This document shows positions 3,191-33,238 of a stretch of 33,238 nt of DNA, in pieces. The notes under the pieces were generated by a model. That model saw only the letters and a program-made list of their open reading frames with translations. It ran no database searches and was not told the DNA's origin. The DNA lies in NCBI GenBank assembly GCA_963578655.1, contig CAUZEB010000003.1, positions 1-33,238 on the forward strand. The letters are read 5' to 3'. The position numbers and the translations under genes are program-made. This DNA comes from Dehalococcoidia bacterium (GTDB taxonomy: Bacteria; Chloroflexota; Dehalococcoidia; Lucifugimonadales; CAUZEB01). Each line of letters begins with the position of its first letter. The stretch's first letter is position 1.

Positions 3191-4681
3191 ATGACCATGA
3201 AATCGAATACTATTTCTGTATTAAGTTTAAAACTACATCCTTCTGATTCTATCCCACTATATAGGCAACTCTACGAACAGCTTCGTAATATTATTCTTGA
3301 AGGCCAACTGCCACCCGGTACGAAGCTTCCCTCCACAAGAGCATTGTCAGATGAACTATCTATAGCACGAAATACCGTACTGAACGCATATGACCAACTT
3401 CTTGCTGAAGGGTACTTAAAAGGAAGAGTTGGTTCAGGAACATACGTAGCCTCTGAACTTCCAGACGCGTTACTTCAAGTCAGAGCAAATTCTAACCTTC
3501 CAGGGATTTTAAATAGGACCCCCAGAACTCTGTCAAGACAAGGTGATTTGGTATCTAGATCCTCAGTTAGCGAGCCGCACGACTTCGCTGTGCCTAAGGC
3601 GTTCCGCCCTGGACTTATGGCAATGAATGTATTCCCCTTCAAACTATGGGCACGTCTATGGGGACGCCAATGGAGAAGAAGGTCATTGGATTTGCTTGGC
3701 TACGGCGATCCTACAGGGTATAAGCCTCTTAGATTGATAACTGCTGAATATCTGAATGCAGCCAGGGGCATACGCTGTGATGCTGATCAAATCATTATCG
3801 TCGCTGGTTCACAGCAAGCATTGAGCATTGCAACGAGAGTGCTTTTAAACGAGGATGACGTGGTGTGGATGGAAGATCCAGGATATCCAGGAGCCTATGC
3901 AGCATTTAGAGGTGCTGGCGCACGAGTAATACCCGTACAGGTAGACCCGCAAGGCTTGAACATAGCCCACGGTGTCTCACTGGCTGATAATGCTAGACTC
4001 ATTTATGCTACACCCTCTCACCAATACCCGTTAGGTGTGACTATGACCCTCTCACGTCGACTTGAATTGTTAGATTGGTCTAGAAGATCTGATGCATGGA
4101 TATTAGAAGATGATTATGACAGCGAATTCCGTTACACAGGCATGCCTTTAGCAGCGTTGAAGGGACTAGACACGGAGGGGCGCGTGATTTACATCGGATC
4201 TTTCAGTAAAATGCTATTCCCCTCACTAAGACTGGGTTATATGGTGGTTCCTCCAGACCTAGTTGACACATTTGCGGCTACCCGAGCCTTAATAGACAGA
4301 GGCTCACCATCTCTTGACCAAGCCGTTTTAGCCGAATTTATATCGGAGGGTCATTTCGCTCGTTACGTCCGTCGAGCCCGTATGCTGTACGCCGAAAGAC
4401 AGGAAACCTTAGTTGAAGCCTCAGCTGAGAGACTAGGCGGCCTACTAGAAGTGCCTTCGTCTGATTCAGGCATGCATCTAGTAGGATGGCTACCAAAAGG
4501 ACTCGATGATTTAGTCGCCTATAAAAAAGCAGCACAGCACAATGTAGAAGCTCCCCCGTTATCAATTTACTATACAAAAACTCCAGACAGAGGAGGGCTA
4601 CTACTTGGATATACAGGGGTAAATACCTGTGAAATAAGGAATGGTGTTAACAGATTGGCTCTTGCACTTGAAAGTCCTTAG
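3191..4681 (+). CDS. pdxR: MocR/GabR-family (GntR HTH plus PLP aminotransferase fold) regulator, probable PdxR
   Basis: GntR HTH (PLYRQLY..GTKLPSTRALSDELSIARNTV..YDQL), then TPSHQYPLG, EDDYDSEFRY and GSFSK (PLP Lys). Divergent from pdxST. Start moved from 3140 to the ATG at 3191 because 3140 lies inside the promoter/operator. Confidence 0.9.
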   Translation: MTMKSNTISVLSLKLHPSDSIPLYRQLYEQLRNIILEGQLPPGTKLPSTRALSDELSIARNTVLNAYDQLLAEGYLKGRVGSGTYVASELPDALLQVRANSNLPGILNRTPRTLSRQGDLVSRSSVSEPHDFAVPKAFRPGLMAMNVFPFKLWARLWGRQWRRRSLDLLGYGDPTGYKPLRLITAEYLNAARGIRCDADQIIIVAGSQQALSIATRVLLNEDDVVWMEDPGYPGAYAAFRGAGARVIPVQVDPQGLNIAHGVSLADNARLIYATPSHQYPLGVTMTLSRRLELLDWSRRSDAWILEDDYDSEFRYTGMPLAALKGLDTEGRVIYIGSFSKMLFPSLRLGYMVVPPDLVDTFAATRALIDRGSPSLDQAVLAEFISEGHFARYVRRARMLYAERQETLVEASAERLGGLLEVPSSDSGMHLVGWLPKGLDDLVAYKKAAQHNVEAPPLSIYYTKTPDRGGLLLGYTGVNTCEIRNGVNRLALALESP

Positions 4682-5898
4682 GGATGCTTCGGATTCAAGG
4701 CTTTCGTGTGATCCAAACTGACTGGCGTATTAAGCTCAAACGGGCTTGAAAGGCCTAACTCTTTACCAATTTCACGCAACGCCGGAGCTACCTCTTCACC
4801 CAGCAATCTGATGCAGGTCATCGAATCCTCATGGTTAACCCTACCATGATTCGCATATAACGATAATATGGACGGACGCGTTTCTTCAAGCAGCACCTTG
4901 AGCTGTTTAATCACTTGATCAGGAGTCCCAGCAATAATACTTCCTGATGCCAACTCACTTTGATAAGTATCGTCTCTTTGCTGTGCCATGTCCCTACGTA
5001 ATTTTAGACGAGCTGCAGTAGAGCTATAGCCCGGCGGACTTATCCATTCAGGTTGACTAGCACCCATTCGCTCGCCACGCTGCATCCAGCGAAATTCTTC
5101 CCCACCCTTCAAGGCTTTCTCTTCTGTCTCAGCGACATGGCATCGAATCAAATATCCTCTTTGTTCCGGACCTGATTTGTAACCCATCCGACTAGCCGTC
5201 TCGTCATAAAGTTTCCAAATCGCTTTCGTGCTTTCTACAGTCGTATTGAGTGCCACATATGGGTAGCGATGTTCGGCAGCCCATACAATTGTCTCTAGAC
5301 TAGCCATTCCCGGAATCCATATCCTTGGATGGGGTTGCTGCAAGGGTAACGCCCACGGATTAACGACCCTAAGCTGATAATGATTTCCCTCCCACCTAAA
5401 AGGTCCTGGCTCAGACCAAATTTTCATAATGATATCATGTGATTCCTTGAATCGTTCTCTATTATATGCAGGATTGACATTGTTAGCGTATTGCTCTTGC
5501 CCTGCACCTCTAACAAATCCAGAGACGATACGTCCTCTGGATAACATGTCCAGCATAGCGATTTCCTCTGCTATCTGAATTGGATTATCTGTCACAGGTA
5601 AAGGATATCCGAGCAGCACTATCTTAATCTTCTCAGTCATACCGGCTAATACTGATGCGAATATATGAATCTTGGCTTGCATGCAGAGAGGTGTGTTATG
5701 GTGTTCATTAAGCATAATACCATCAAAGCCCACCTCCTCTGCATAAAGATATTCCTCAAGCCGCTCATTATACAACCTACTCCCCTCAATAGGATCAAAA
5801 AACTTATTGGAAAAAACGAGATTATTACGTCCGGCCTTTATTGCTTCCGTTTCAGGATATGTCGACATCGGTTGTTCGGTAAAGTACATCAGGAACAT
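4678..5898 (-). CDS. LLM (luciferase-like) class flavin-dependent oxidoreductase
   Basis: Motifs GFDGIMLNEHH, AEEIAMLDMLSRGR..GFVRG, PLQQPHPRIWIPG and IAGTPDQV. Confidence 0.92.
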   Translation of the reverse strand: MFLMYFTEQPMSTYPETEAIKAGRNNLVFSNKFFDPIEGSRLYNERLEEYLYAEEVGFDGIMLNEHHNTPLCMQAKIHIFASVLAGMTEKIKIVLLGYPLPVTDNPIQIAEEIAMLDMLSRGRIVSGFVRGAGQEQYANNVNPAYNRERFKESHDIIMKIWSEPGPFRWEGNHYQLRVVNPWALPLQQPHPRIWIPGMASLETIVWAAEHRYPYVALNTTVESTKAIWKLYDETASRMGYKSGPEQRGYLIRCHVAETEEKALKGGEEFRWMQRGERMGASQPEWISPPGYSSTAARLKLRRDMAQQRDDTYQSELASGSIIAGTPDQVIKQLKVLLEETRPSILSLYANHGRVNHEDSMTCIRLLGEEVAPALREIGKELGLSSPFELNTPVSLDHTKALNPKHP

Positions 5899-12303: not shown

Positions 12304-14239
12304 GTGTTGGGCGCTTTAGATGGTATTACTATTCTGGAAATTACCGGTAATATGTCAGGTGCAATAGTTACCATGCTACTTTGTGATAACGGGGCTAGAG
12401 TCATACGTGTAGAAAACGACATACACACTAACGCGAGAAATACTCCAGAATATGCGGTTTGGGACAGGGGTAAAGAAAAGTTTCATTTGAATCTACATAA
12501 GGATTCTGAAGCCAATAAGCACGATTCATTAGACATATCCAGTTTTTTTACCAATTAGTGAAAAGTATCGATGTCTTGGTTACGGACTCGATGACACAGT
12601 GGCATTCGATGATGGATATCACCTACCATAAACTTTCAGTCATTAACCATCAATTAATCTATTGCTCCATATCTTCATATGGCGGAGAGAGGGCCCTACA
12701 ACATGACTTCTCGTTAGATGATCTAGTTATGGCTCGTACGGGCATTTTATCGTCACAACCTTTCTTCCGTCCAGGTCCTGTACATGTGATACATCCCTTG
12801 CCGAGTATAGGCGCATCCCTGTGGGCATCCATAGGGACCGTCGCTGCTCTATATGCTAGAGAGAAAACGGGGGTCGGAAGAAAAGTAGCAACTTCCCTTA
12901 TGGCTGAGAGTTTAATGTTCGCCCCAAAAACACTCGGGGAACACCTTTCAGATTTCTTTTCCCTAATTCACCCACAGATGGTGGACCTTTCTATAGCCTG
13001 TATGAATGTGCAGACGGTGAATGGATCCAGTTAGGTTATGTTCATGGAGGATTTATTGATATTGCGATATCAGTCATGAGTATAGCTCACTTAATTACAG
13101 AACCGAAATTTGGGGAAGGAAGAAATCCAGATTCCGAACACTCCAGACGAGTACTCTTTGAAATAGTCAGAGATGTCATAAAGACTAAGGCATTTAACGA
13201 ATGGGAAGACTTATTTGAAGATGCCGATGTCCCATTCGCCAAAGCATACACAACGGACGAAAGTATGGACAATCCCCAAGTTCGATTTAACAATATGGTA
13301 GTAACTGTAACAGATCACGAACTTGGGGATATGATGCAAATGGGCAACTCGATTAAATTTATCAAATCGCCCGGTGAAATCAAGAATGGGAAGCAAATTA
13401 GTCATTTACATAATAACCCGACTTTCGCCGAGTTATTGAAAAGCTTATCAATTAAAAACATCCCCAGTAGTACGACTAAAATGAGTAAGGAAGATCTACT
13501 GCCAACTTCCTTAGAAGGGGTTAAAGTTGTCGAACTAACAAATGTAATTGCAGGACCTATGGCAGGCAAAATCCTAGCAGATTTGGGGGCTAACTGTATC
13601 AAGATAGAACCTCATTATGGTGATATTTCGCGTGCAGGAGGATCTGAGTTCTTCATTCATCTAAATTCCAATAAACGTTCTATATGCTTGGATGCAAAGA
13701 CCAAATCAGGAAAATCTATAATACAGAAGTTAGTTTCGAAAGCAGATGTAATTCTAGATAACATGCGCCCCGGTGCGGGAGATCGTATGGGTGTTGGACA
13801 TGAATCCATGACCAAGCTCAATCCTAACATAACTGATACCCACGTCACAGGCTATGGATCATCGGGACCATATTCTTAAAGACCGGGTGTCGCGGCCCCT
13901 GGTGAAAGCTCTAACAGGATTGCATCGAGCCCAGAGCGGGACAGAGAATCCGCCGAATTTGGCAGTTATAACTCGAACGTCTGCTTACAGTTACTGCATG
14001 ACGTTGGAGTTCCTTGAGCACCAGTAACAACTAACTATGGGATAAAGTTTTTCTCTGACCCACAGGCAATCGCCAATAACATGATTATAGAACACAATCA
14101 CAGAAATTTCGGCAAACTTAAATTCTCACATAATTTAATAAATTTTGGAGCAACGAAAGAGATATATGCTAGGACAACCCCATTTCTTGGAGAGCATACC
14201 GCTGAGATCCTGAAGGAATTAGTGATTGACTATCGATGA
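12304..14239 (+). pseudogene. degraded double-domain CaiB/BaiF (family III) CoA-transferase
   Basis: Fragments ALDGITILE..DNGARVIRVE..WDRGK, YECADGEWIQL, LEGVKVVELTNVIAGP..LADLGA..KIEP..NSNKRS..DNMRPG and PFLGEHTAEILKEL. They are broken by frameshifts (about 12545, 12960, 13893), an in-frame TAA at 13877 and an apparent internal deletion. Confidence 0.82.
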
Positions 14240-20459: not shown

Positions 20460-20473
20460 AAGGAGTGTATAAA

Positions 20474-21919
20474 ATGAGGCTTGGAAATCTCAGTGCAGAA
20501 CAAGTTATCGACCTGGCACAAAACATGGGAATACAGATGATTGATCTAAAGTTTGTGGACCTACCAGGAACGATGCAACATCTTTCTATTCCAACTATTG
20601 AATTAACACCAGAACTTTTTGAAGAAGGCACTGGTTTCGACGGCTCCAGTATTCGAGGGTTCCAAGCTATAAATGAAAGCGACATGCTGCTTTTGCCCGA
20701 TCCATCCACAGCCGTTCTAGACCCAACCTTTGAAATTCCCACTCTGAGTTTAATCTGTAATATCATTGATCCTTCGACCAGAGATGGATACGTCAGAGAT
20801 CCTCGTCGTATCGCTCAAAAAGCAGAACTTTACCTCAAGTCTACGGGTATAGGTGATTTGAGTTACTGGGGACCAGAAGTTGAGTTCTTCATATTCGATG
20901 AAGCTCGATTTGATCAAAATGCTCATAGCGGATATTACTTCGTGGATTCCGATGAAGGCATATGGAATTCTGGGTCTGAAACCGTTTTAAATAAAGATTC
21001 AAATAGAAACCTTGCGTATCGTCCTAGACTTAAGGGAGGGTATTTTCCTTCACCTCCTACAGACACCTTCACTGATATACGTTCAGAGGCTGTTCTCCTA
21101 ATGCAAGACTTTGGTATTCATGTCGAGAAACACCATCATGAAGTTGGCACGGCTGGACAAGGTGAAATTGATATACGTTACGACAGCCTAGTCAGTACGG
21201 CAGATAATGTTATGGTATACAAATATATAGTAAAAAACATCGCAAGAAAGCATGGAAAAGTAGCCACATTCATGCCGAAACCCATATTCGGTGACAACGG
21301 AACCGGAATGCATACCCACCAGAGTATTTGGAAAGATAACACTAACCTCTTCTACGGCCAGGGATACGCCAATATGAGTGACATGATGAAATATTATATT
21401 GGCGGTCTGCTCAAACATTCCCCTGCCCTGCTAGCCTTCTGCGCTCCAACCACCAATTCATACCGACGACTAGTACCAGGATATGAAGCTCCGGTGAATC
21501 TGGTCTATTCCGCACGTAATCGCAGCGCCTGCGCCAGGATTCCCATGTACTTCGATTCTCCAGCTTCGAAGAGAATAGAATACCGCTGTCCAGATCCTTC
21601 AGCCAATCCTTATTTGGCTTTTCCTGCCATGCTTATGGCAGGGATAGACGGAATAATCAACAAAATCGATCCCGGAGACCCAATGGATGTCGATTTATAC
21701 GAATTAAGCTCTGAAGAAGTCGCTAATGTCCCTAAGGTTCCAGGAAGTCTCGAAGACTCTCTAGATGCCCTAGAGAAAGACAATGAATTTTTAGTTCATG
21801 GGGGCGTTTTTACAGAAGACATAATCCAGACATGGCTGGATTATAAAAGAAACGTAGAAGTAAATGAAATGAGGCTACGTCCCCACCCATACGAATTCTA
21901 CATGTATTTCGATTCATGA
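20474..21919 (+). CDS. glnA: glutamine synthetase type I (GSI-beta)
   Basis: Motifs [48 protein letters not shown] and IEYRCPDP; carries the GSI-beta insertion and an adenylylation-type DLYEL. AAGGAG RBS before ATG 20474. Confidence 0.97.
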
Positions 21920-22001
21920 AATAACCACTAATTACTTTAATTAACAGGTATTGAATTGCCTAATTTAAAGGTAAATGTTATATCAACACGGGGGAATTCC
22001 G

Positions 22002-22970
22002 ATGGAATACGCATTTGGAACCCTTGCGCAAGGGGTATTTGCACAGCCGGATAATATATCCCTGATCGCTCTTAAAGGCGAAGAATTCGGATTTGAAATG
22101 ATGTGGGTAAACGATCACATAATCATGCCCTCCAGCATAAACTCGCGTTACCCTTACACTGAAGATGGTAAATTCAATGAATTTGGAGATTCAGGTGACT
22201 ATCTTGAACAACTAACAGTTTTAAGCTATTTAGCCTCCGAAACATCTACTGTCAAACTTCTAGCTTCTGTAATGGTAGTACCTTACCGCGATCCAATCTT
22301 GACTGCAAAGATACTTTCTTCTATAGATGTCCTATCAAAGGGACGTCTCTTGTTAGGGTGTGGAGCGGGCTGGATGCAAGAAGAATTCGAAGTATTAGAA
22401 CGTCCTCCTTATAAGGAACGAGGGTCTGTAACCGAAGAATATATCCGTATCTTTAAAAACTTATGGACTGAACAATCACCTTCTTTTGTTGGACAATACG
22501 CTTCTTATTCGGACATAGTATTCGAACCTAAACCGGTGCAAATACCACATCCACCAATATGGATTGGTGGAGAGAGTCGCGCAGCACGTGAACGAGTAGT
22601 AAGAGTAGGGAATGGTTGGTTCCCTATAATAGACAATCCACGATACCGACTTGATACACCAGAGCTTTTTACAAAAGGAGTCGAAAGTCTGAAAAGACTG
22701 TCTACTAACTATAATCGTGATCCTAAAACTGTGGAAATCGCATTCGCGGTTAATTTATATGACGATACACGAGCACACATTGGTGACGACGGTAGGCGTA
22801 AAGTCTTTACTGGTACTCATGAACAAATTGCTTCGGACATAATCGAATACAAAAATGCCGGGGCACAAGCCATGATGTTGGGATTCACCGTAGACAGACA
22901 GTCACCAAATGCAACTATCGAACAGATGCACAGATTCAGTGAATCTGTGCGTCCCTTGGTTGAAACTTAG
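22002..22970 (+). CDS. LLM class, probably F420-dependent, oxidoreductase (Rv2161c/TIGR03619-like)
   Basis: Motifs MWVNDHII..YPY, SVMVVPYRDP.LTAK..DVLSKGR..GCGAGWMQEEF and PKPVQIPHPPIWIGGES. Start probably ATG 22002 (track 21975). Confidence 0.88.
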   Translation: MEYAFGTLAQGVFAQPDNISLIALKGEEFGFEMMWVNDHIIMPSSINSRYPYTEDGKFNEFGDSGDYLEQLTVLSYLASETSTVKLLASVMVVPYRDPILTAKILSSIDVLSKGRLLLGCGAGWMQEEFEVLERPPYKERGSVTEEYIRIFKNLWTEQSPSFVGQYASYSDIVFEPKPVQIPHPPIWIGGESRAARERVVRVGNGWFPIIDNPRYRLDTPELFTKGVESLKRLSTNYNRDPKTVEIAFAVNLYDDTRAHIGDDGRRKVFTGTHEQIASDIIEYKNAGAQAMMLGFTVDRQSPNATIEQMHRFSESVRPLVET

Positions 22971-23036: not shown

Positions 23037-24374
23037 ATGTTAAACAGAGATACAGAAGCTATAGAATATGTACTGCATACAGCTAGGGAGAATGATGTCA
23101 AATTCATCCGACTATGGTTCACTAATATACTGGGTAATTTGAGAGGGTTCGCAATAACAGTTGAAGAATTGGAAAACACCTTAGTACGAGGTATGGGATT
23201 CGATGGGTCTTCTGTAGAGGGATTTGCTCGTTCAGACGAAAAGGATCTTTACGCGTTACCAGATCCTAACACATTTAACATTCTCCCTTGGAGACCAAAA
23301 ACTAATGCCGTCGGACGGATGTTTTGTGACATCGTCACACCTAATGAAAGATATTTTGAGGGTGACACGAGATATGTTCTCAAACGAAATTTAGAACGAG
23401 CAGCAAGCCTTGGATTTACTTACTACGTTGCACCCGAAATAGAGTACTTCTATTTCAAGAATGCCGATGGTACTGAAATGCTCGATCAGGGCGGATATTT
23501 TGATCAAGACGCTACAGATCTCTCTACAGACCTAAGGCGGGAAACCGTGTTGATGTTAGAGGAATTTGGTATACCAGTAGCATCGAGCCATCATGAGGTA
23601 GCCCCCAGTCAACATGAGATAGACTTAAAACATACAGATGCACTAACTATGGCAGATACTGTTATGGCATATAGATTGGTCGTCAAGGAGGTTGCCACCA
23701 AGCATGGCTATTATGCAACTTTTATGCCCAAACCAATTGCCGAAGTAAATGGTAATGGGATGCATGTCCACCAATCTTTGTTTAGAGGAGACCAAAACGC
23801 CTTCGTGGAACCAAATGATGCATACCAGCTATCCGATACGGCTAAGTATTTCATCGCAGGTCTTTTACATCATTCGCGTGAAATCACTGCTGTAACAAAT
23901 CAGTGGATCAACTCTTATAAACGTTTGGTTCCAAAGTTTGAAGCCCCTACATATGTCTCATGGGCCACAGTTAATAGATCTGACTTGATAAGAGTTCCCG
24001 CCTATAAGGCAGACCGCGAAATGTCCCGCCGTATCGAGTATCGTGCGCCAGATCCAGCATGTAATCCTTACCTTGCGTTTAGTGTTATGCTTGCAGCCGG
24101 GCTTGAAGGAATTGAAAAGAAATATGATCTACCGCCACCCGTTCAAACCAATGTTAATGAAATGAGTAACGAAGAACGTAGAACTCACGGAATAGAGGAA
24201 TTGCCTTCTAACTTGTGGGAAGCAATTCACATCACCGAACAAAGTAATCTAGTCCGGAATGCCTTAGGGGAACATGTCTTTAAGAGTTTTATAGAAAATA
24301 AGAAGATCGAATGGGAAATGTACCACTCCACTATAAGTGACTACGAGATCGCTAAATATTTGCCTATCCTCTAA
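23037..24374 (+). CDS. glnA: second glutamine synthetase-family protein (GSI-alpha/GlnA2-like; possibly a gamma-glutamyl ligase)
   Basis: Motifs FDGSSVEGF, HHEVAPSQHE, ATFMPKP..NGNGMHVH, NSYKRLVPKFEAP and RIEYRAPDP; 445 aa, lacks the GSI-beta insertion. Confidence 0.9.
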   Translation: MLNRDTEAIEYVLHTARENDVKFIRLWFTNILGNLRGFAITVEELENTLVRGMGFDGSSVEGFARSDEKDLYALPDPNTFNILPWRPKTNAVGRMFCDIVTPNERYFEGDTRYVLKRNLERAASLGFTYYVAPEIEYFYFKNADGTEMLDQGGYFDQDATDLSTDLRRETVLMLEEFGIPVASSHHEVAPSQHEIDLKHTDALTMADTVMAYRLVVKEVATKHGYYATFMPKPIAEVNGNGMHVHQSLFRGDQNAFVEPNDAYQLSDTAKYFIAGLLHHSREITAVTNQWINSYKRLVPKFEAPTYVSWATVNRSDLIRVPAYKADREMSRRIEYRAPDPACNPYLAFSVMLAAGLEGIEKKYDLPPPVQTNVNEMSNEERRTHGIEELPSNLWEAIHITEQSNLVRNALGEHVFKSFIENKKIEWEMYHSTISDYEIAKYLPIL

Positions 24375-25542: not shown

Positions 25543-26313
25543 CTATTGGGACAAATATCCTCCGTCGGCCGCAAGCGCATGCCCCGTAACAAATGATGAC
25601 TCATCGGAGCACAGCCATATTACAACTTCTGCTATTTCTTCAGGGGTTCCCAATCGTCCAATAGGATGGCGCCGAATAACACGCTCCCTAAGCTTCTCGT
25701 CACCTTTGGATATGCGATCCATCATGGGAGTTTCTATATAACCGGGACACACTGCGTTAACCCTTATATTTGACTTAGCATATTCTAATGCAGCGGTTTT
25801 GGTAATACCAATTACACCATGCTTAGCAGCTACGTAAGAGCATGCACCAGGCATGCCAACCAATCCAGCTATGGAAGACGTGTTTACGATACATCCAAAT
25901 CCTTGTAGCAACATTTGTTTGATTTCGTATTTCATTGAAAGCCAAACGCTCTTTAGGTTTATATCAATAACTCTATCCCAATCGGCTTCGGAGTACTCAT
26001 GTATAAACTTATTATCAGCTTTATTCACACCTGCATTATTGAAACCATAATCAAGCCTACCGTACGTAGCAACAACTTTTTCAATGACATCTTGGCAACT
26101 CTGAGTTTTAGTCACGTCAGTCATAACAAAAATTGATTTGCCGCCATTTCCATTTATTTCTTTTACAGTTTCCTCGCCCTGTAGATCATCAATATCAGCG
26201 ACTACAACACTAGCTCCATGCGTAGCAAATGCTAATGCTGTACTTCGTCCAATACCAGAACTCCCACCGGTTACCAAGGCTACTTTACTATCAAATTCGA
26301 GAGCCAAAACCAC
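25543..26313 (-). CDS. classical SDR oxidoreductase, NAD(H)-type
   Basis: Motifs TGGSSGIG, VADI, NNAG, DINLK, SSIAG and YVAAK. Confidence 0.93.
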   Translation of the reverse strand: MVLALEFDSKVALVTGGSSGIGRSTALAFATHGASVVVADIDDLQGEETVKEINGNGGKSIFVMTDVTKTQSCQDVIEKVVATYGRLDYGFNNAGVNKADNKFIHEYSEADWDRVIDINLKSVWLSMKYEIKQMLLQGFGCIVNTSSIAGLVGMPGACSYVAAKHGVIGITKTAALEYAKSNIRVNAVCPGYIETPMMDRISKGDEKLRERVIRRHPIGRLGTPEEIAEVVIWLCSDESSFVTGHALAADGGYLSQ

Positions 26314-26391: not shown

Positions 26392-27159
26392 TTATTGACA
26401 GACAAAACCTCCATCCACGGACATGGCGTGACCTGTTACAAAAGAAGCACTATCAGAACAAAGCCAAACTGCAGGTGCTGCTATCTCCTCAGGACTGCAA
26501 AAACGTCCCATCGGTTCCTTATCTAAAAAGCGTTCCTTAAACCCAGGTAAACCTAATGCAATTCTTTCGGTCATGGGCGTATAAGCCCCACCGGGACAAA
26601 TAACATTAACCCTGATGCCATATTTGGCATTCTCTAATGCAGCGGTTTTTGTCAATCCTATTACACCATGCTTGCTGGCCGCGTATCCGGCCCCTGCTGC
26701 TATACTACCGACCAAACCTGCAATTGAAGAAGTGTTCACTATAGAACCACCGCCTTGTTTCAACATTTGGGGAATTTCATACTTCATACACAACCAAACA
26801 CCTTTCAGATTCACCCCTAGTACACTATCCCAAACTTGTTCCTCATATTGGTGAGTTGGTACACCCTGAGCACCTTCAATACCGGCATTATTAAACGCAC
26901 AATCGATTCTACCGAACTTAGCAATAGTTCCATCGACCATGTGCTTTACTTCAGAAGCCTTAGAAACGTCCGTTTGCAGAAAGACGGCTTCACCTCCCCT
27001 AGACTCAATTTCTGCAACAGTTTCAGTACCACTATAAGGATTAATATCAACGACCACGACTTTAGCACCCTTTTTTGAGAAAATCATACAGGCAGCCTTG
27101 CCTATGCCTGAACCTCCACCTGTCACAATTACTACTTTCTCTTCAAACTGATTCTCCAT
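26392..27159 (-). CDS. classical SDR oxidoreductase, NAD(H)-type
   Basis: Motifs TGGGSGIG, VVDI, NNAG, GVNLK, SSIAG and YAASK. Confidence 0.93.
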   Translation of the reverse strand: MENQFEEKVVIVTGGGSGIGKAACMIFSKKGAKVVVVDINPYSGTETVAEIESRGGEAVFLQTDVSKASEVKHMVDGTIAKFGRIDCAFNNAGIEGAQGVPTHQYEEQVWDSVLGVNLKGVWLCMKYEIPQMLKQGGGSIVNTSSIAGLVGSIAAGAGYAASKHGVIGLTKTAALENAKYGIRVNVICPGGAYTPMTERIALGLPGFKERFLDKEPMGRFCSPEEIAAPAVWLCSDSASFVTGHAMSVDGGFVCQ

Positions 27160-27189: not shown

Positions 27190-28230
27190 CTATGGTATGG
27201 TTACCAATATTTTCCCAAAGAAATTTATGTCTTCCATCATCTTGTGAGCTTCAGCAACCTCCGCAAGGGGAAATGACCGATAAATGACACCACGTATCAC
27301 TCCTCTGCCAGCCAATTCAATTATCTGTCTTAGGTCTTCATTACGACCCATGAAAACACCGAATATAGTCTGATGTCTCAAAAATAACAATCCGATCTGT
27401 AGGTCAACTTTATAGCCGGACGTAGCACCGCATATACCATAACGACCGCCAACCGCCAGCGAAGATATAGCATCAGTCCAAAAATCCGTTCCCACGTGAT
27501 CTAGAACTACATCGACTCCTTTGCCATCGGTTAATTCTTTCACCCTCTTTGCTACATTCTCCACGTTATAATTAATAACTTCATCTGCACCCAAGTCTCT
27601 GGCCTTATTCATTTTGTCATCCGTACTGGTAGTGGTTATCACTCTAGCCCCGATAACATTCTTTGCCACCTGTATACCTGCTGTGCCAACTCCACTGGAC
27701 GCAGAAGGGATCAGTACAGTTTCCCAGGGTTTGAGAGCAGCTTTCCTAAGCATAATAGACCAGCATGGCAAAAAGACAGTTGGCATGGAAGCCGCCTGTT
27801 CATAACTCAAATTCCGTGGAAGCTGTACAACGTTAGACGCCTCTACCGAAACATATTCTGCATAGCCACCGTTAGTAGTTACACCCAACATGCCGGAGTT
27901 TACACATAATTCAGGTTCTCCCCTTATACAAAACGCACATTCACTGCAAATTATTCTGGGGTTAACAACCACACGGTCTCCTATGTCTACTCTGGAAACA
28001 TTCGTCCCAGTCTCTACAACTTCTCCCGCGACATCACTACCCAAGATATGAGGCCCATTAAAGTCGATTCTAGTACCTCTCTGGCCTGCTCTAGTAAAGA
28101 TGTCAAGACGGTTTAGAGCACAGGCTCTCACTTTTATTTTGACTTCGGTCGGCCCAGTATCGGGTTGGTCAACTTCATCGTATACCAGAGTTTCTGTTCC
28201 ACCGTGTTTTGTAATATATACTGCCTTCAC
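27190..28230 (-). CDS. MDR-family (zinc-binding ADH-like/quinone oxidoreductase-like) dehydrogenase
   Basis: MKAVYITKHGG start at GTG 28230 (AGGAAGG RBS); structural-Zn CSECAFC..C, GGYAEY, ASSGVG and FGKIL. Confidence 0.9.
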   Translation of the reverse strand: MKAVYITKHGGTETLVYDEVDQPDTGPTEVKIKVRACALNRLDIFTRAGQRGTRIDFNGPHILGSDVAGEVVETGTNVSRVDIGDRVVVNPRIICSECAFCIRGEPELCVNSGMLGVTTNGGYAEYVSVEASNVVQLPRNLSYEQAASMPTVFLPCWSIMLRKAALKPWETVLIPSASSGVGTAGIQVAKNVIGARVITTTSTDDKMNKARDLGADEVINYNVENVAKRVKELTDGKGVDVVLDHVGTDFWTDAISSLAVGGRYGICGATSGYKVDLQIGLLFLRHQTIFGVFMGRNEDLRQIIELAGRGVIRGVIYRSFPLAEVAEAHKMMEDINFFGKILVTIP

Positions 28231-28251
28231 TAAACTAGCCTTCCTACCCAA

Positions 28252-29205
28252 TCAGTCTACTAATGATTTAATATTTAATGCGAAATGCTCCATACGCGAT
28301 AAGGTGTTATCCAATTCGGTCTCACCAAACCTAAGCATTAGAGTGCGCACACCTAGTTCTTCAAAGACCTTTATATCATCCGATATTTCTGAGGGATTGC
28401 CCGTAAAACATCGTCGTTCACCGTCAGACAATAATTCCTTTTCTTCATTGTACCAACTAGCACTGTACGCTAAATCTATCGAGTCGGGATCACGTCCAAT
28501 CTTGTTTGCATTCTCCCGGACACGAGACAAACAACTAGAGAACTCTGTCGGAGTTCCGACCGGAAAACGTGGGTTGCTTCCAATTGGATACCAGGCATCT
28601 CCTAGTTCAGCAGCTCTTCTAAGAGCTGGCGGACTCTCCCCACCTATCCATATAGGCGGGTGCGGTTTTTGTATTGGCTTTGGTGCAAAAGTCACATCTG
28701 AGAAATTTGCGTATTTGCCTTGAAATCTTGGGTTCTCTTTCGTCCATAATTCTTTGAAGACTCTAATGTACTCATCGCTTACAGCGCCACGTTCACCATA
28801 GGGCGCAGTCCCTATAGCCGAGAATTCTTCCTGCATCCAACCTACTCCGCATCCAACAATCAAACGTCCCTCGGACAAGACATCAATCGTAGCTAAAATT
28901 TTAGCTGTTAAGACGGGGTTTCTATGAGGTAATACCATCACTGAAGTTAGTAGTCTGACCTTGGAGGTAATTGCTGATAGGAAGCTCAACTCCGCTAACT
29001 GCTCCATACATTCTCCAGATTCGCCACCGACAAAAGCTCCTGACTCGCTATAGGGATATATAGATTCTATTGACTTAGGCACAATAATATGATCACTAAC
29101 GGATAGGATATCGAATCCCAATTCTTCTCCCTTACGAGCAATTTTTCCGATATCACTTCTATTTGCCAGTGGACCTCTACTCGGTATAGTAAACCCATAT
29201 CTCAT
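28252..29205 (-). CDS. LLM class, probably F420-dependent, oxidoreductase
   Basis: Motifs VSDHII..YPY, SVMVLPHRNP.LTAK..DVLSEGR..GCGVGWMQEEF and PKPIQKPHPPIWIGGES; paralog of 22002-22970. Confidence 0.88.
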   Translation of the reverse strand: MRYGFTIPSRGPLANRSDIGKIARKGEELGFDILSVSDHIIVPKSIESIYPYSESGAFVGGESGECMEQLAELSFLSAITSKVRLLTSVMVLPHRNPVLTAKILATIDVLSEGRLIVGCGVGWMQEEFSAIGTAPYGERGAVSDEYIRVFKELWTKENPRFQGKYANFSDVTFAPKPIQKPHPPIWIGGESPPALRRAAELGDAWYPIGSNPRFPVGTPTEFSSCLSRVRENANKIGRDPDSIDLAYSASWYNEEKELLSDGERRCFTGNPSEISDDIKVFEELGVRTLMLRFGETELDNTLSRMEHFALNIKSLVD

Positions 29206-29622
29206 CAAACTACTCCTTACATCGCGATTCCGTGATCCTGTCTGAATATACTTTTTGGTAATCGGAAATATAGCTAGGAAATCTTCTGTGACTCATACAC
29301 TACAGAGCTAATGTAACGTTGATCAACAACCTGGATATCTGGTTCTGCCTACATATTGCTTCAACAGACAGATAATGTCCACCCCAATTCCGGACTTACC
29401 AAATTGACGCCCTGCCGAATTGGTGTCATACGGTCATAACACACGATAAGCATTCATTCCGACAAGTCTTGTTAATGCCCATATGGATAAGTGGAACTGA
29501 GATGATCTTGTAGGTTTAAGTTTTCGTAGTCAAGAGATGAAATTTCTAAGGTTTGCAATCACTTGCCTTTCCATGGCAAGATAGCAACAATAATACAAAA
29601 TTTACTGGTGGAGGTTTGAGTT

Positions 29623-30393
29623 ATGAGGATGAAAGGAAAGGTTGCTCTAATCACTGGAGCGGCTTCAGGACTTCAAGGCGAACTTATGGGATTCGGGGGA
29701 TCATCAGCTTGGATGATGGCCAAGGAAGGAGCAAAACTTGTCCTGACAGACATCAAAGAGGAAGTAGGTGTTCGCACGGTTGCACAAATGAGAGAACGTG
29801 GATTCGACGCAATATTCATGAAACTTGATGTGACAAACGAAAACGATTGGATCAATGCTATTGAGCAAACTGTGGCACAGTATGGCAAATTAGATGTGTT
29901 GGTCAATAACGCTGGGACGGGATCTCCATATACCGTAGAGGAAACAACAGAGGAAGAGTGGGACGAACAAATGGACGTGCACGCCAAGGGAACTTTCCTC
30001 GGAACAAAACATGCTATTCCAGAGATGCGTAAATCAGGTGGTGGATCAATAATCAACATCTCATCGATTAACGGATTAGTCGGGAGTCCTTCTTCTACCG
30101 CTTATCATGCTGCTAAAGGAGCCGTACGCCTCTTTACAAAGGCTGCTGCTGTGCAGTACGCCAAAGATAACATAAGAGTCAATTCTATCCATCCTGGATA
30201 TGTACTTACTCCATTGACCTTACAATCCTTCAGCAATGATGACGAAAGACAAATCAGGGTCAACAGGGTTCCTATGGACAGGTTAGGAACTGCGGACGAA
30301 ATCGGGTATGGAATACTATACCTTGCATCAGATGAATCCTCTTTTGTAACTGGTTCAGAACTCGTCATAGACGGAGGCATGACTGCACAATAG
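29623..30393 (+). CDS. SDR oxidoreductase, insertion/His variant, copy 1
   Basis: Motifs TGAAS-GLQGELM-GFG, NNAG, DVHAKG, ISSING and YHAAK. Confidence 0.93.
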   Translation: MRMKGKVALITGAASGLQGELMGFGGSSAWMMAKEGAKLVLTDIKEEVGVRTVAQMRERGFDAIFMKLDVTNENDWINAIEQTVAQYGKLDVLVNNAGTGSPYTVEETTEEEWDEQMDVHAKGTFLGTKHAIPEMRKSGGGSIINISSINGLVGSPSSTAYHAAKGAVRLFTKAAAVQYAKDNIRVNSIHPGYVLTPLTLQSFSNDDERQIRVNRVPMDRLGTADEIGYGILYLASDESSFVTGSELVIDGGMTAQ

Positions 30394-30647
30394 AACCTTG
30401 TTGTGAACAAACCTTAGGTATTAGAATGCTTGACACAAAGTTGATATGAAGTGTGCAACTTATAGCATTTAACCTACTGCTTTATGTAGATCACATGGGA
30501 TATTCGGTGATGAAAATGCTTTCGAAATATTCACAGAATCATGGTCTTGACTGCACTGATCAAAACTTTAAGCGGATATTTTGAACATGCACTTTTAAAC
30601 ATATGGCAGAAAATCGATCAGTTAATATATAGGAGAAATTTGATTAC

Positions 30648-31424
30648 ATGAGACTATCAGGGAAAGTGATACTGATTACAGCAGCGGCCCATGGCATCGA
30701 AGGAAAATTGATGGGCATAGGTGGCGCTACCGCCAGAGTATTGGCTAAAGAGGGAGCAAAATTAATTGTGACGGATATCAACGCAGATGCAGGTAAGCAA
30801 ACTTGCGCCGAAATCCGTAAAGAAGGCGGATATGCTACATATGAAACGCTTGATGTATCAAATAAGCAAGACTGGATCAAAACGATTAACAAAGCAATGA
30901 CTAGATTTGGAAGGCTGGATGTATTAGTAAACTGCGCAGGCGCGAGAGGAGGACAACAGTACGCCCTGGAAGACACACCTGTTGAGGACTGGGACAGACA
31001 AATGAACGACCATGCTAAGGCAGTTTTCCTAGGAACTAAGTATGTAATCCCACATATGAGAAAGATTGGCGGAGGATCTATAATTAACATCTCCTCTATA
31101 TACGGTATCGTGGCACCACCAACATCTCCAGCATATAGCGCAGCGAAAGGGGCAATCCGAATTTTCACGAAAGCTGCAGCTATTCAATACGCAGCCGATA
31201 AAATTAGAGTCAACTCAGTCCATCCGGGTTATGTCCATACAACACAAACCAACAAAATGATGTCGGACCCCGAAGTACGTCAATGGCTTTTGGATAGAAC
31301 CCCACTGGGGAGACTCGCTAAAGGAGAGGATATAGCCCACGGAATAGTGTACCTTGCATCAGACGAGTCCTCTTTCGTTACAGGATCAGAGCTAATCATT
31401 GACGGTGGAGTAACGGCTCAGTAA
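30648..31424 (+). CDS. SDR oxidoreductase, insertion/His variant, copy 2
   Basis: Motifs TAAAH-GIEGKLM-GIG, NCAG, NDHAKA, ISSIYG and YSAAK. Confidence 0.93.
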   Translation: MRLSGKVILITAAAHGIEGKLMGIGGATARVLAKEGAKLIVTDINADAGKQTCAEIRKEGGYATYETLDVSNKQDWIKTINKAMTRFGRLDVLVNCAGARGGQQYALEDTPVEDWDRQMNDHAKAVFLGTKYVIPHMRKIGGGSIINISSIYGIVAPPTSPAYSAAKGAIRIFTKAAAIQYAADKIRVNSVHPGYVHTTQTNKMMSDPEVRQWLLDRTPLGRLAKGEDIAHGIVYLASDESSFVTGSELIIDGGVTAQ

Positions 31425-31436
31425 TAAGAGGATATT

Positions 31437-32222
31437 ATGAGATTAGCAAATAAAGTCGCCTTGATTACCGGAAGTGCCAACGGAGCCTTAGATGATGTAA
31501 AAGGAATAGGAGGCGCCACAGCATGGATGTTCGCGAAAGAAGGAGCGAAGGTAGTATTGGCAGACATCAATGACGAAATGGGACAGAAAACTGCCTTACA
31601 GCTACGAAATATGGGATACGATTCAATCTATGTACATCTCAACGTCTCTAATGAACAAAACTGGATTAAGGCAATAAATAAGGCAGTACTAACTTACGGC
31701 AAACTGGATATTCTGGTAAACAGTGCTGGAACTATCGCTCCTTTCAGCGTTGAAGATACTACTTCAGAAGTCTGGGACGAGCAAATGAACGTACACGCCA
31801 AGGGGACTTTCCTCGGAACAAAGCACGCAATCCCAGCAATGCGTAAATCAGGCGGTGGGTCAATAATCAATATGTCATCGATTAACGGACTTGTCGCTGC
31901 AACAACCTCAACAGCGTACTGTGCCGCCAAAGGTGCGGTTCGAGTATTCTCCAAAGCAAGCGCTGTCCAATATGCAAAGGAAAATATTAGAGTGAATTCA
32001 GTACATCCTGGATATACAAAAACTCCACTGAATAGTTCTGCAAGTAAAATACCAGCAGGCATATCGCCAGAGGAAATCAAGAGGAGAATTATGACGGTTC
32101 CTTTAGGAAGAATGGCAACCTCAGACGAGATAGCGTATGGTATCCTGTTCTTGGCGTCTAACGAATCTTCTTTTATAACTGGATCCGAATTGGTCATTGA
32201 CGGGGGAGTGACCGCACAATAG
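31437..32222 (+). CDS. SDR oxidoreductase, insertion/His variant, copy 3
   Basis: Motifs TGSAN-GALDDVK-GIG, NSAG, NVHAKG, MSSING and YCAAK. Confidence 0.93.
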   Translation: MRLANKVALITGSANGALDDVKGIGGATAWMFAKEGAKVVLADINDEMGQKTALQLRNMGYDSIYVHLNVSNEQNWIKAINKAVLTYGKLDILVNSAGTIAPFSVEDTTSEVWDEQMNVHAKGTFLGTKHAIPAMRKSGGGSIINMSSINGLVAATTSTAYCAAKGAVRVFSKASAVQYAKENIRVNSVHPGYTKTPLNSSASKIPAGISPEEIKRRIMTVPLGRMATSDEIAYGILFLASNESSFITGSELVIDGGVTAQ

Positions 32223-32294
32223 CAAGCCCCCAACTATTTCCTCTGTTGAGTATGTTCCACCTAGGCCATAAATGATATTCTGGGAGAATTCTAA

Positions 32295-33083
32295 ATGAGA
32301 CTTAAAAACAAGGTTGCTCTTATAACTGGAGCGGCTATGGGGTTAAAAGAACGGAAAATGGGTATTGGTGGGGCTACCGCCTGGCTATTTGCGAAAGAAG
32401 GAGCCAGAGTCATGCTTAGCGATTACAATGAGGAGTTAGGCAAAGAAACTACTTCTCAAATACGTGAGTGCGGATACGACGCTAGGTTTATCTATTTAGA
32501 TGTTTCAGACGAGCAGAATTGGATAGATGTGATTCAAAAAACCGTATCTCTCTTCGGAAAAGTTGATATATTGATCAATAGTGCAGGTAATGTGATTTCC
32601 GCTAATATAGAAGATACGACAGTTGATATTTGGGACAAGTTGATGGCAATTCATGCCAAAGGTCCGTTCTTTGGTACCAAACATATTATTCCGGAAATGA
32701 AGAAGATAGGTGGTGGATCAATAGTCAACATATCCTCCATTAACGGGCTAACAGGTAGCGGAGCGAGTCCAGGTTATACTGCAGGGAAAGGTGCAGTTCG
32801 TATTTTTAGTAAAGCTGCTGCAATTCAATATGCAAAAGATGGTATCAGGGTGAACTCTGTTCATCCAGGCTATGTCGAGACACCCCTGAGTAGAAGTAGA
32901 GTGGGTAACTCAGGTGCTGATTCAGAAACTGAATTAGCCCGTAAGCGAATTGCTGAGACGCCCATGGGTCGAGAAGCAACGGCTACTGAATTGGCGTACG
33001 GTATACTTTACCTCGCTTCTGATGAATCCTCATTTGTTACGGGATCTGAGTTAGTAATCGATGGAGGATTCTACGCGCAATAA
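32295..33083 (+). CDS. SDR oxidoreductase, insertion/His variant, copy 4
   Basis: Motifs TGAAM-GLKERKM-GIG, NSAG, AIHAKG, ISSING and YTAGK. Confidence 0.93.
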   Translation: MRLKNKVALITGAAMGLKERKMGIGGATAWLFAKEGARVMLSDYNEELGKETTSQIRECGYDARFIYLDVSDEQNWIDVIQKTVSLFGKVDILINSAGNVISANIEDTTVDIWDKLMAIHAKGPFFGTKHIIPEMKKIGGGSIVNISSINGLTGSGASPGYTAGKGAVRIFSKAAAIQYAKDGIRVNSVHPGYVETPLSRSRVGNSGADSETELARKRIAETPMGREATATELAYGILYLASDESSFVTGSELVIDGGFYAQ

Positions 33084-33238
33084 TACTCTGAAAAACTAGT
33101 GTATTCATTCTTATCCACTGGGTCTCCACTGTCTTACACTACTCAAGGAATTTTCAGAACCCCTCTCTAGTAATTTCCCTTTGAAAAAGACATCGGAAAC
33201 TTTTCTTAGATCATTTATATTCTTTATAGGATCACCAT

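Follow-up and report, generated by a model that had tools for sequence, protein, structure and literature searches.

Four tandem genes on the forward strand of a contig from a marine Dehalococcoidia bacterium encode short-chain dehydrogenases/reductases (SDRs) whose glycine-rich cofactor motif is interrupted, between TGxxx and GxG, by exactly seven extra residues, and the clade of proteins sharing this insert is a large, so far undescribed branch of the SDR family. The genes, called paralogs 1 to 4 here, occupy positions 29623-30393 (256 aa), 30648-31424 (258 aa), 31437-32222 (261 aa) and 32295-33083 (262 aa) of the window, that is, the whole 33,238-nucleotide stretch that was analyzed. The insert comprises residues 16-22 in each of them: GLQGELM in paralog 1 (nt 29668-29688, followed by GFGG), GIEGKLM in paralog 2 (nt 30693-30713), and the divergent GALDDVK and GLKERKM in paralogs 3 (nt 31482-31502) and 4 (nt 32340-32360), respectively. 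An earlier sequence-only reading of this DNA had noticed the four N-termini, TGAAS-GLQGELM-GFG, TAAAH-GIEGKLM-GIG, TGSAN-GALDDVK-GIG and TGAAM-GLKERKM-GIG, and had taken two canonical classical SDRs on the reverse strand (25543-26313 and 26392-27159) as an internal control; both observations were confirmed, the controls having the uninterrupted motifs TGGSSGIG and TGGGSGIG, respectively. When the six proteins were aligned with MAFFT, the insertion formed one gap-free block of seven columns in the four paralogs, opposite a seven-column gap in the two controls, and HMMER alignments of the paralogs to SDRs of solved structure open the same seven-residue gap. The placement of the insert is ambiguous by two residues (TGAAS-GLQGELM-GFG or, in a larger MAFFT set, TGAASGL-QGELMGF-G); its length is unambiguous.

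The insert is no chance event: it is present in all four tandem genes, is lacking in the other SDR-like genes found in the same genome, and recurs in all of the best database matches. A regular-expression scan of the window's genome (1.95 Mb in 230 contigs, 41.8% G+C, 87% complete) found 23 SDR-like open reading frames (ORFs), 19 with an uninterrupted motif and four with the insert, which are the tandem genes themselves. All of the best 120 database matches of paralog 1 carry the seven-residue insert, 61 as recognized by the regular expression and the other 59 as read on the N-termini. Nearly all of these proteins are 256-257 aa long, and paralog 1 is 93% identical to P0001, 83% identical to P0002, and 68-75% identical to the 118 further matches. 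In a library clustered at 50% identity, by comparison, only six of the 150 best representatives (P0122, P0123, P0127, P0148, P0172 and P0237) contain the insert, while most of the others have the canonical turn and a few a turn longer by two residues; the clade is therefore compact in sequence yet has many members. When the search was repeated with the divergent P0148, mostly the same clade was retrieved, and of the 89 new proteins 88 have an insert of seven residues and one an insert of eight, so that the length is seven in 208 of the 209 database matches checked.

To evaluate conservation, 214 insert-bearing rows were aligned with 128 canonical ones; the set was not de-duplicated and contains many close kin. 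The consensus of the insert is G-V-E-G-E-L-M, and five of its seven positions are more than 90% conserved: G16 is found in 203 of the 214 rows, V/L/I17 in 206, G19 in 197, E/D20 in 195, L21 in 202 and M22 in 209. The description of the insert as otherwise variable behind its first Gly, given in the sequence-only reading, thus holds inside the window only, and across the clade the sequence is strongly conserved. Directly after the insert comes G23-F24-G25-G26, of which G26 is present in all 214 rows while the canonical relatives have Ala, Arg or Glu at this position. Within the window, paralog 1 represents the archetype of the clade, and paralogs 2 to 4 are copies that have diverged from it. 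We considered whether the insert arose by duplication of the adjacent codons for GxGxxxA, as a G-h-x-G pattern recurs there, but agreement is limited to three of seven positions and any such event lies too far back, so the idea was abandoned. A search with a 30-residue query around the insert retrieved only the repeats of the fungal β-propeller lectin PVL (E 0.008-0.14), which we attribute to a chance likeness to "..D(I/V)VGFG..".

The clade also differs from its canonical relatives at several other positions of the cofactor site and active site. Position 120, where the Asn of the N-S-Y-K catalytic tetrad is expected in helix αE, is His in 209 of 214 insert-bearing rows, while among the 128 canonical relatives sampled Asn is found in 118 and His in one. 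All four paralogs of the window have His there (His120 at nt 29980-29982 in paralog 1, His122 at nt 31011-31013 in paralog 2, His120 at nt 31794-31796 in paralog 3 and His120 at nt 32652-32654 in paralog 4), and the two reverse-strand SDRs retain Asn (INLKS and VNLKG). Position 99, which follows NNAG, is Thr in 183/214 versus 0/128 (Ile or Val in the canonical rows); position 116 is Gln in 204/214 where canonical proteins have mainly Val, Ile or Leu; and position 164, just before the catalytic Lys in YxAAK, is Ala in 191/214 versus 16/128 (otherwise Ser or Thr). The four paralogs therefore depart from two hallmarks of classical SDRs, in that seven residues interrupt the contiguous TGxxxGxG and the tetrad Asn is replaced. 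The rest of the site is retained. Of the catalytic residues, S148 is found in all 214 rows, Y161 in 213 and K165 in 211, and the four paralogs have all three, with the sequence YTAGK in paralog 4; D69-V70 of the DV motif and N95, A97 and G98 of NNAG (NNAGT in paralog 1) are nearly invariant. NAD-preferring SDRs combine an acidic residue at the end of β2 with a glycine motif free of basic residues, and this holds for the clade, which has Asp43 at the end of β2 in 214/214 rows and, in paralogs 1 to 4, S, H, N and M at position 15. Three deep-branching, insert-bearing proteins, P0127, P0148 and P0172, have Asn, Asn and Ser, respectively, at position 120, which means that the insert either predates the His or can be separated from it.

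AlphaFold2 models of paralogs 1 and 3, built from a 132-row alignment, are of high confidence (mean pLDDT 97.7 and 95.7, respectively, with a pTM of 0.94 for both), including residues 11-30, for which pLDDT is 97-98 and 96-97, respectively. DSSP assigns a strand to residues 7-10/11, coil up to residue 23 and a helix to residues 24-34. Helix αA starts at residue 24 in both models, which is the Phe or Ile of G-F/I-G, so that GFG takes the structural place that GxG has in canonical SDRs, at the N-terminal end of the helix. As modeled, the glycine-rich turn is lengthened from ~6 to 13 residues, and the insert would be part of a confidently predicted, ordered 13-residue loop in front of helix αA that is not evidently a mobile flap. 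The only weak region of the paralog 3 model is its lengthened substrate loop (residues 201-210, pLDDT 58). The modeled fold is that of a classical SDR, whose Foldseek neighbors are NAD(P)-dependent keto-reductases and alcohol dehydrogenases (ADHs) with TM scores of 0.89-0.95.

The profile matches likewise assign the four genes to the classical SDRs; their NAD-type site is intact. All four match PF13561 (E 1e-58 to 1e-64; 196-218 bits against a cut-off of 27) and PF00106 (E 1e-48 to 1e-54; 164-183 bits against 26.6). The broad model NF005559 (PRK07231, glucose 1-dehydrogenase subfamily, cut-off 215) scores 237.7, 221.2 and 217.7 bits with paralogs 1-3 and 211.5 bits, under the cut-off, with paralog 4, and none of the NCBIfam equivalog models exceeds its cut-off with any of the four. 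Matching NF005559 accounts for the public name "glucose 1-dehydrogenase" of homologs such as P0065 and P0103, which is not evidence of glucose oxidation, and several other homologs have been named cyclopentanol dehydrogenase by JGI on similarity alone. The best Protein Data Bank (PDB) chains are classical SDRs with 36-41% identity, and the insert is absent from all alignments shown by phmmer searches with the whole protein or the first 50 residues, by a search with a 46-sequence N-terminal profile, and by Foldseek. With that profile, each of the 60 best PDB chains is shorter in this region, 56 of them by exactly seven residues; the exceptions are 6f9q and 7quj (six shorter), 7krk (five shorter) and 5jc8_A (two shorter), the alignment of the last not being among those seen, so that the location of its extra residues was unseen. 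The sequence-only reading had known of no description of such an insertion, and we likewise found none among the PDB entries, NCBIfam models and papers searched, a full-text search with the motif being empty; a literature search for His in place of the tetrad Asn gave no related description, and a look-up in the ESM Atlas returned only generic SDR clusters.

The notion that these proteins form a distinct SDR subfamily, also put forward in the sequence-only reading, is borne out by the phylogeny together with the signature residues described above. When 53 insert-bearing and 30 canonical rows were analyzed by maximum likelihood, all 53 fell into one group with an SH-aLRT support of 98, in which two long-branched canonical rows are also placed when the insert columns are included. 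When these columns are removed, the insert-bearing sequences still cluster: the insert label requires three changes on the tree, against a mean of 24.7 for shuffled labels (0/500 shuffles as low). A tree constrained to hold the 53 rows together is 74 log-likelihood (lnL) units better than the free tree from a quick search, with a p value of 0.93 in the approximately unbiased (AU) test. A single origin of the insert is therefore compatible with these alignments, not proven by them. Within the array, the first tree places paralogs 1, 3 and 4 in a supported group and leaves paralog 2 unresolved, while the tree without the insert columns supports no placement of any paralog. The paralogs are 55-64% identical to one another in amino acid sequence with synonymous sites saturated, and the same four-gene array is present on a contig (L019) of a related metagenome-assembled genome (MAG). 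The ratios of nonsynonymous to synonymous substitution rates between the window and the L019 orthologs are 0.066, 0.107, 0.085 and 0.073 for paralogs 1, 2, 3 and 4, respectively. All four copies are under purifying selection, and the duplications that produced them are old. The L019 ortholog of paralog 1 has an in-frame TAA at ~1371-1373 in place of the window's Tyr codon (GYGIL*LASDESS), behind which the frame stays intact up to its usual end; the TAA must reflect a nonsense mutation or else an error of assembly.

What, then, might the insert do? In all classical SDRs, the β1-αA turn cradles the pyrophosphate of the cofactor and faces the adenine ribose, and the residue before GxG faces the pocket for the adenine ribose and the 2'-phosphate. 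On this ground, the extension would most likely add a fixed wall or cap that covers the adenosine-ribose/pyrophosphate part of NAD. Such a cap would enclose NAD more tightly and exclude NADP, while the enzyme would still operate as a normal dehydrogenase with exchangeable NAD(H). G26 and T99 would lie in the two loops that flank the extension, and His120, Gln116 and Ala164 would remodel the proton-relay end of the active site. Because the NAD-site residues and Ser-Tyr-Lys are intact, the four proteins are most likely NAD-dependent alicyclic alcohol/ketone dehydrogenases; the closest characterized relatives of the clade are secondary or alicyclic ADHs of the cyclopentanol dehydrogenase, R-specific ADH and 3α/20β-hydroxysteroid dehydrogenase (HSD) types. 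The paralogs differ most in the substrate-binding loop, as seen in the MAFFT alignment, where paralogs 1, 2, 3 and 4 have 0, 0, 5 and 6 extra residues after the PG motif, the lengthened loops being encoded at approximately 32040-32060 in paralog 3 and 32900-32925 in paralog 4. In SDRs, divergence of this loop usually signals that substrates have diversified, and the four paralogs would therefore probably act on different cyclic alcohols or ketones. Taken as a whole, the explanation that these are NAD-dependent SDRs, encoded by old tandem paralogs, in which the insert caps NAD is the one we favor, giving it about an even chance of being right. It fits the published proposal that SDR paralogs of SAR202 bacteria prime alicyclic compounds for Baeyer-Villiger or luciferase-like monooxygenases (LLMs).

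Several points weigh against this explanation. The predicted position of the insert over NAD follows from the general structure of SDRs and a secondary-structure string. Residue 12 of paralog 2 (nt 30681-30683) is Ala in place of the near-invariant Gly of "TG" (TAAAHG), a replacement found in two of the 214 insert-bearing rows, paralog 2 and its L019 ortholog, and the same protein has NCAG instead of NNAG; the loss of the Gly may weaken cofactor binding, and paralog 2 might be a weaker NAD binder or a non-catalytic subunit. The His that replaces the tetrad Asn could mean altered chemistry that a cap over NAD leaves out of account, and the deep-branching P0127, P0148 and P0172 lack this His despite having the insert. 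Given a probably single origin of the clade, the co-occurrence of His120, T99 and A164 with the insert would represent essentially one historical event rather than repeated co-evolution, and shows no functional coupling. In addition, the link to an LLM/Baeyer-Villiger pathway is by analogy only because the gene neighborhood is not conserved, and the substrate class of the four enzymes is a predicted one.

A different explanation is that the proteins are true nicotinoproteins, in which the insert, an ordered substrate loop and the His/Thr/Ala changes trap NAD(H) permanently and turnover needs an external acceptor or a second substrate, as in dismutation or transhydrogenation. The insert sits in the dinucleotide-binding turn and is highly conserved, as this would demand, and short loops that shield the adenosine part are known to make NAD non-exchangeable in SDRs and medium-chain dehydrogenases/reductases (MDRs), according to the available parts of two papers (PMC5264612, PMC12985038). 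The same parts confirm what the sequence-only reading had stated about the mycofactocin-associated SDRs, namely, that their insertion lies elsewhere, between β2 and α2. The solvent-accessible area of NAD is quoted as about 82-94 square angstroms for typical SDRs and about 11-25 for carveol dehydrogenases (PMC12985038). In the TIGR03971 proteins, the adenosine part of NAD is covered by the loop and the cofactor no longer exchanges (PMC5264612); the loop has 10-20 residues, and its deletion abolishes tight binding (PMC12985038), but it was necessary without being sufficient in that 2026 grafting study, as far as the accessible text goes, since its transfer into another SDR created no tight binding and it proved hard to transplant. 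The insert of the present clade, in contrast, has seven residues at β1-αA, and between β2 and α2 we found no length difference from canonical SDRs. TIGR03971 scores only 183.9 bits with paralog 1 and 156.5 with paralog 4 against a cut-off of 300 and is outside the best 25 models for paralogs 2 and 3. Neither the window's genome, 87% complete as it is, nor five other genomes holding the family contain a match to MftC (TIGR03962) over its cut-off of 265, the best scores being 32.9 and 57.5 bits, respectively, and comparable matches, generic to radical-SAM proteins, are obtained with all 14 control genomes. No conserved neighbor gene that might encode a carrier was found at 78 loci. A permanently trapped cofactor is therefore unlikely in our estimation, and we are more skeptical still of a second, independently evolved SDR nicotinoprotein, in which a seven-residue turn lid and a His-Ser-Tyr-Lys site hold NAD(H) permanently without mycofactocin. 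If that were true, these abundant Dehalococcoidia enzymes of ocean and soil would be redox-neutral isomerases or dismutases, or would pass electrons to a non-nicotinamide acceptor. The idea in the sequence-only reading of a flap that would hold the cofactor in place or serve as a dock for an electron carrier has so far gained no support, considering the shortness and predicted order of the loop and the lack of both MftC and a conserved neighbor.

The insert might instead form a protein-contact surface, whether an altered oligomer interface, a means of forming hetero-oligomers among tandem paralogs, or a docking site for a partner. This would agree with the recurrence of tandem paralogs (four in the window and L019, three in L048, and pairs in G402, G403 and G447) and with the insert diverging most in the extra paralogs 2-4, but the gene is single at 75 of 78 loci and no partner gene is conserved, classical SDR interfaces are formed by helices αE/αF and by αG/βG and not by this turn, and the accompanying changes G26 and T99 lie in neighboring loops of the cofactor site; such a role seems doubtful. 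We would give similarly little credence to the view that the insert is a tolerated, clade-marking indel, fixed once and inherited without functional consequence. The tree is compatible with a single origin, and paralogs 2-4 have changed most positions of the insert while still under overall purifying selection, both of which would suit a neutral indel; it is harder to reconcile with the conservation of five of the seven positions, the all but fixed length, the high confidence of this region in both AlphaFold2 models, and its location in the most length-conserved turn of the fold, where the 60 best PDB chains are all shorter. The most remote of the alternatives is that the remodeled turn binds a different ligand or none, with a changed cofactor or a non-redox function comparable to that of the halohydrin dehalogenases. 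These enzymes have a Ser-Tyr-Arg triad and have lost the nucleotide site, the glycine-rich motif now being an anion site. The replaced tetrad Asn could be taken in this sense, and insertions or deletions in β1-loop-α1 can switch the coenzyme of Rossmann enzymes, for which the portion available of one paper gives three-residue deletions that turn an NAD enzyme into one using S-adenosylmethionine (PMC9860332), so that length changes in this element can matter. However, Asp43, D69-V70, NNAG and S148-Y161-K165 are kept, with Lys, not the Arg typical of halohydrin dehalogenases, at position 165 in 211 of 214 rows; the retention of every other NAD-site residue argues against a change of cofactor, and we regard it as very improbable.

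The preferred reading, of NAD-dependent dehydrogenases with a capped cofactor, can be compared with several known systems. R-specific ADH of Lactobacillus (1zjy/1nxq), glucose 1-dehydrogenase of L. fermentum (8yav), ChKRED20 (5x8h), 3α,20β-HSD (2hsd) and cyclopentanol dehydrogenase have the same fold and length class and share Ser-Tyr-Lys, NNAG, the DV motif and the Asp ending β2 with the paralogs, and the C-terminal ...DGG.TAQ is common to the paralogs, 8yav and 4ni5; unlike the paralogs, all of these secondary-alcohol/ketone SDRs have an uninterrupted TGxxxGxG, with a seven-residue gap in every alignment shown. SDRs of the PDB 7krk type (TGAAS-ER-GIG) have two extra residues in the turn, against seven in the clade, and lack the G-x-x-G-E-L-M consensus, indicating that the β1-αA turn tolerates small length changes. 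FabI-type enzymes have a G-x5-S-x-A motif. The mycofactocin-coupled SDRs (TIGR03971; for example, carveol dehydrogenase, PDB 3PGX) resemble the clade in having a family-specific insertion at the NAD site, their loop lying at β2/α2 where that of the clade lies at β1/αA. The nearest counterparts in terms of organism and annotation, to judge from the accessible sections of the paper, are the 60 SAR202 SDR paralogs of Landry et al. 2017, which have ~50% identity to cyclopentanol dehydrogenase and 3α/20β-HSD and were proposed to oxidize alicyclic alcohols ahead of Baeyer-Villiger monooxygenases (PMC5395668). In those sections the insert and the His go unmentioned (PMC5395668); the available text of Saw et al. 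2020 does not discuss SDRs (PMC6946804).

The clade deserves attention because it alters both the β1-αA turn, whose length is better conserved than that of any other part of the SDR cofactor site, and the textbook active site Asn-Ser-Tyr-Lys, with the remainder retained. It amounts to a natural experiment on how the length of the turn and the tetrad Asn relate to NAD affinity, cofactor exchange and proton relay, which would be of relevance to SDR enzymologists even though a new mechanism is not demonstrated. For the metabolism of SAR202, the relevance lies in the abundance of the clade in SAR202-type Dehalococcoidia, for whose SDR paralogs a role has been proposed in initiating the oxidation of recalcitrant, alicyclic dissolved organic matter. 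As the public names "glucose 1-dehydrogenase" and "cyclopentanol dehydrogenase" reflect similarity only, a dedicated family model together with biochemistry would correct many annotations.

The distribution of the clade was surveyed, together with its gene neighbors, as the sequence-only reading had suggested; the spread proved to be mostly within Dehalococcoidia, and no conserved neighbor emerged. A back-translated motif, scanned against one genome per species of 185,579 species, matched at least 120 stretches, 117 of 120 of which encode an SDR N-terminus with the insert. Among the matches listed, 114 of these 117 are labeled Chloroflexota (105 of them Dehalococcoidia), two come from MAGs labeled Pseudomonadota and one is unlabeled. 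A strict 32-nt motif matched only the window's own genome among 401 genomes spread evenly over the phylum, six of which were from its order, a result explained by the sampling and the strict pattern rather than by absence. With a shorter motif, 21 of the 61 genomes from that order gave a match, compared with one for the control, although some of these are chance matches (one contains a stop codon). The clade is, on these motif counts, centered on Dehalococcoidia/SAR202-type genomes, and the scans therefore point to a concentration in one very large Dehalococcoidia order, within which it is patchy. At 78 full-length loci the gene is single in 75, the remainder being L019 with four copies and L048/L049, which are one region, with three. 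In G402, G403 and G447, all of the window's order, motif matches lie 800-870 nt apart on one strand as tandem pairs, and tandem duplication of the gene is therefore not unique to the window; it occurs in other families of the order too.

Clustering of 869 ORFs from 80 full loci revealed no conserved neighbor of the insert-bearing genes, the commonest clusters being represented at 19, 18, 16 and 15 of the 78 loci. At 16 of 78 loci, all within one subclade of Dehalococcoidia genomes, the insert-bearing gene has a divergent neighbor ~1-3 kb away on the opposite strand that encodes a canonical SDR (motif TGAGRGMG). In the window, the divergently oriented neighbors on the reverse strand, given as context only, are an F420-dependent LLM-class oxidoreductase gene (28252-29208; TIGR03619 235.7 bits, cut-off 166.9) and a gene of a zinc-type MDR dehydrogenase (27190-28251), beyond which lie the two control SDRs, for both of which PRK06172 is the top-scoring NCBIfam model (359 bits, over the cut-off of 336, and 331 bits). 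An LLM gene like that of the window is near an insert-bearing SDR gene at 11 of 78 loci.

The stretch is present in seawater metagenomes from several studies, and contigs of three seawater RNA libraries cover parts of all four genes without a differing letter. These contigs are only a hint of expression, because such libraries can contain DNA, and they cannot show transcript ends or levels; the lack of cover of 29200-29604 in the three libraries is not evidence. Promoter and terminator scans of 29100-33238 gave sites no more numerous than in shuffled sequences.

Elsewhere in the window, LLM-class genes number three, including those at 4678-5898 and 28252-29208, which is typical of SAR202-type genomes, and a luciferase-like monooxygenase gene (21975-22970) is flanked by two glutamine synthetase genes (20465-21919 and 23037-24374). 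Adjacent forward-strand ORFs in 12558-13879 both match CoA-transferase family III, in an unexpected order: the ORF at 12558-13034 corresponds to profile positions 85-212 and the C-terminal part of that at 13076-13879 to positions 1-129. This region may consist of two genes that are partial or rearranged, or of one gene that continues into another.

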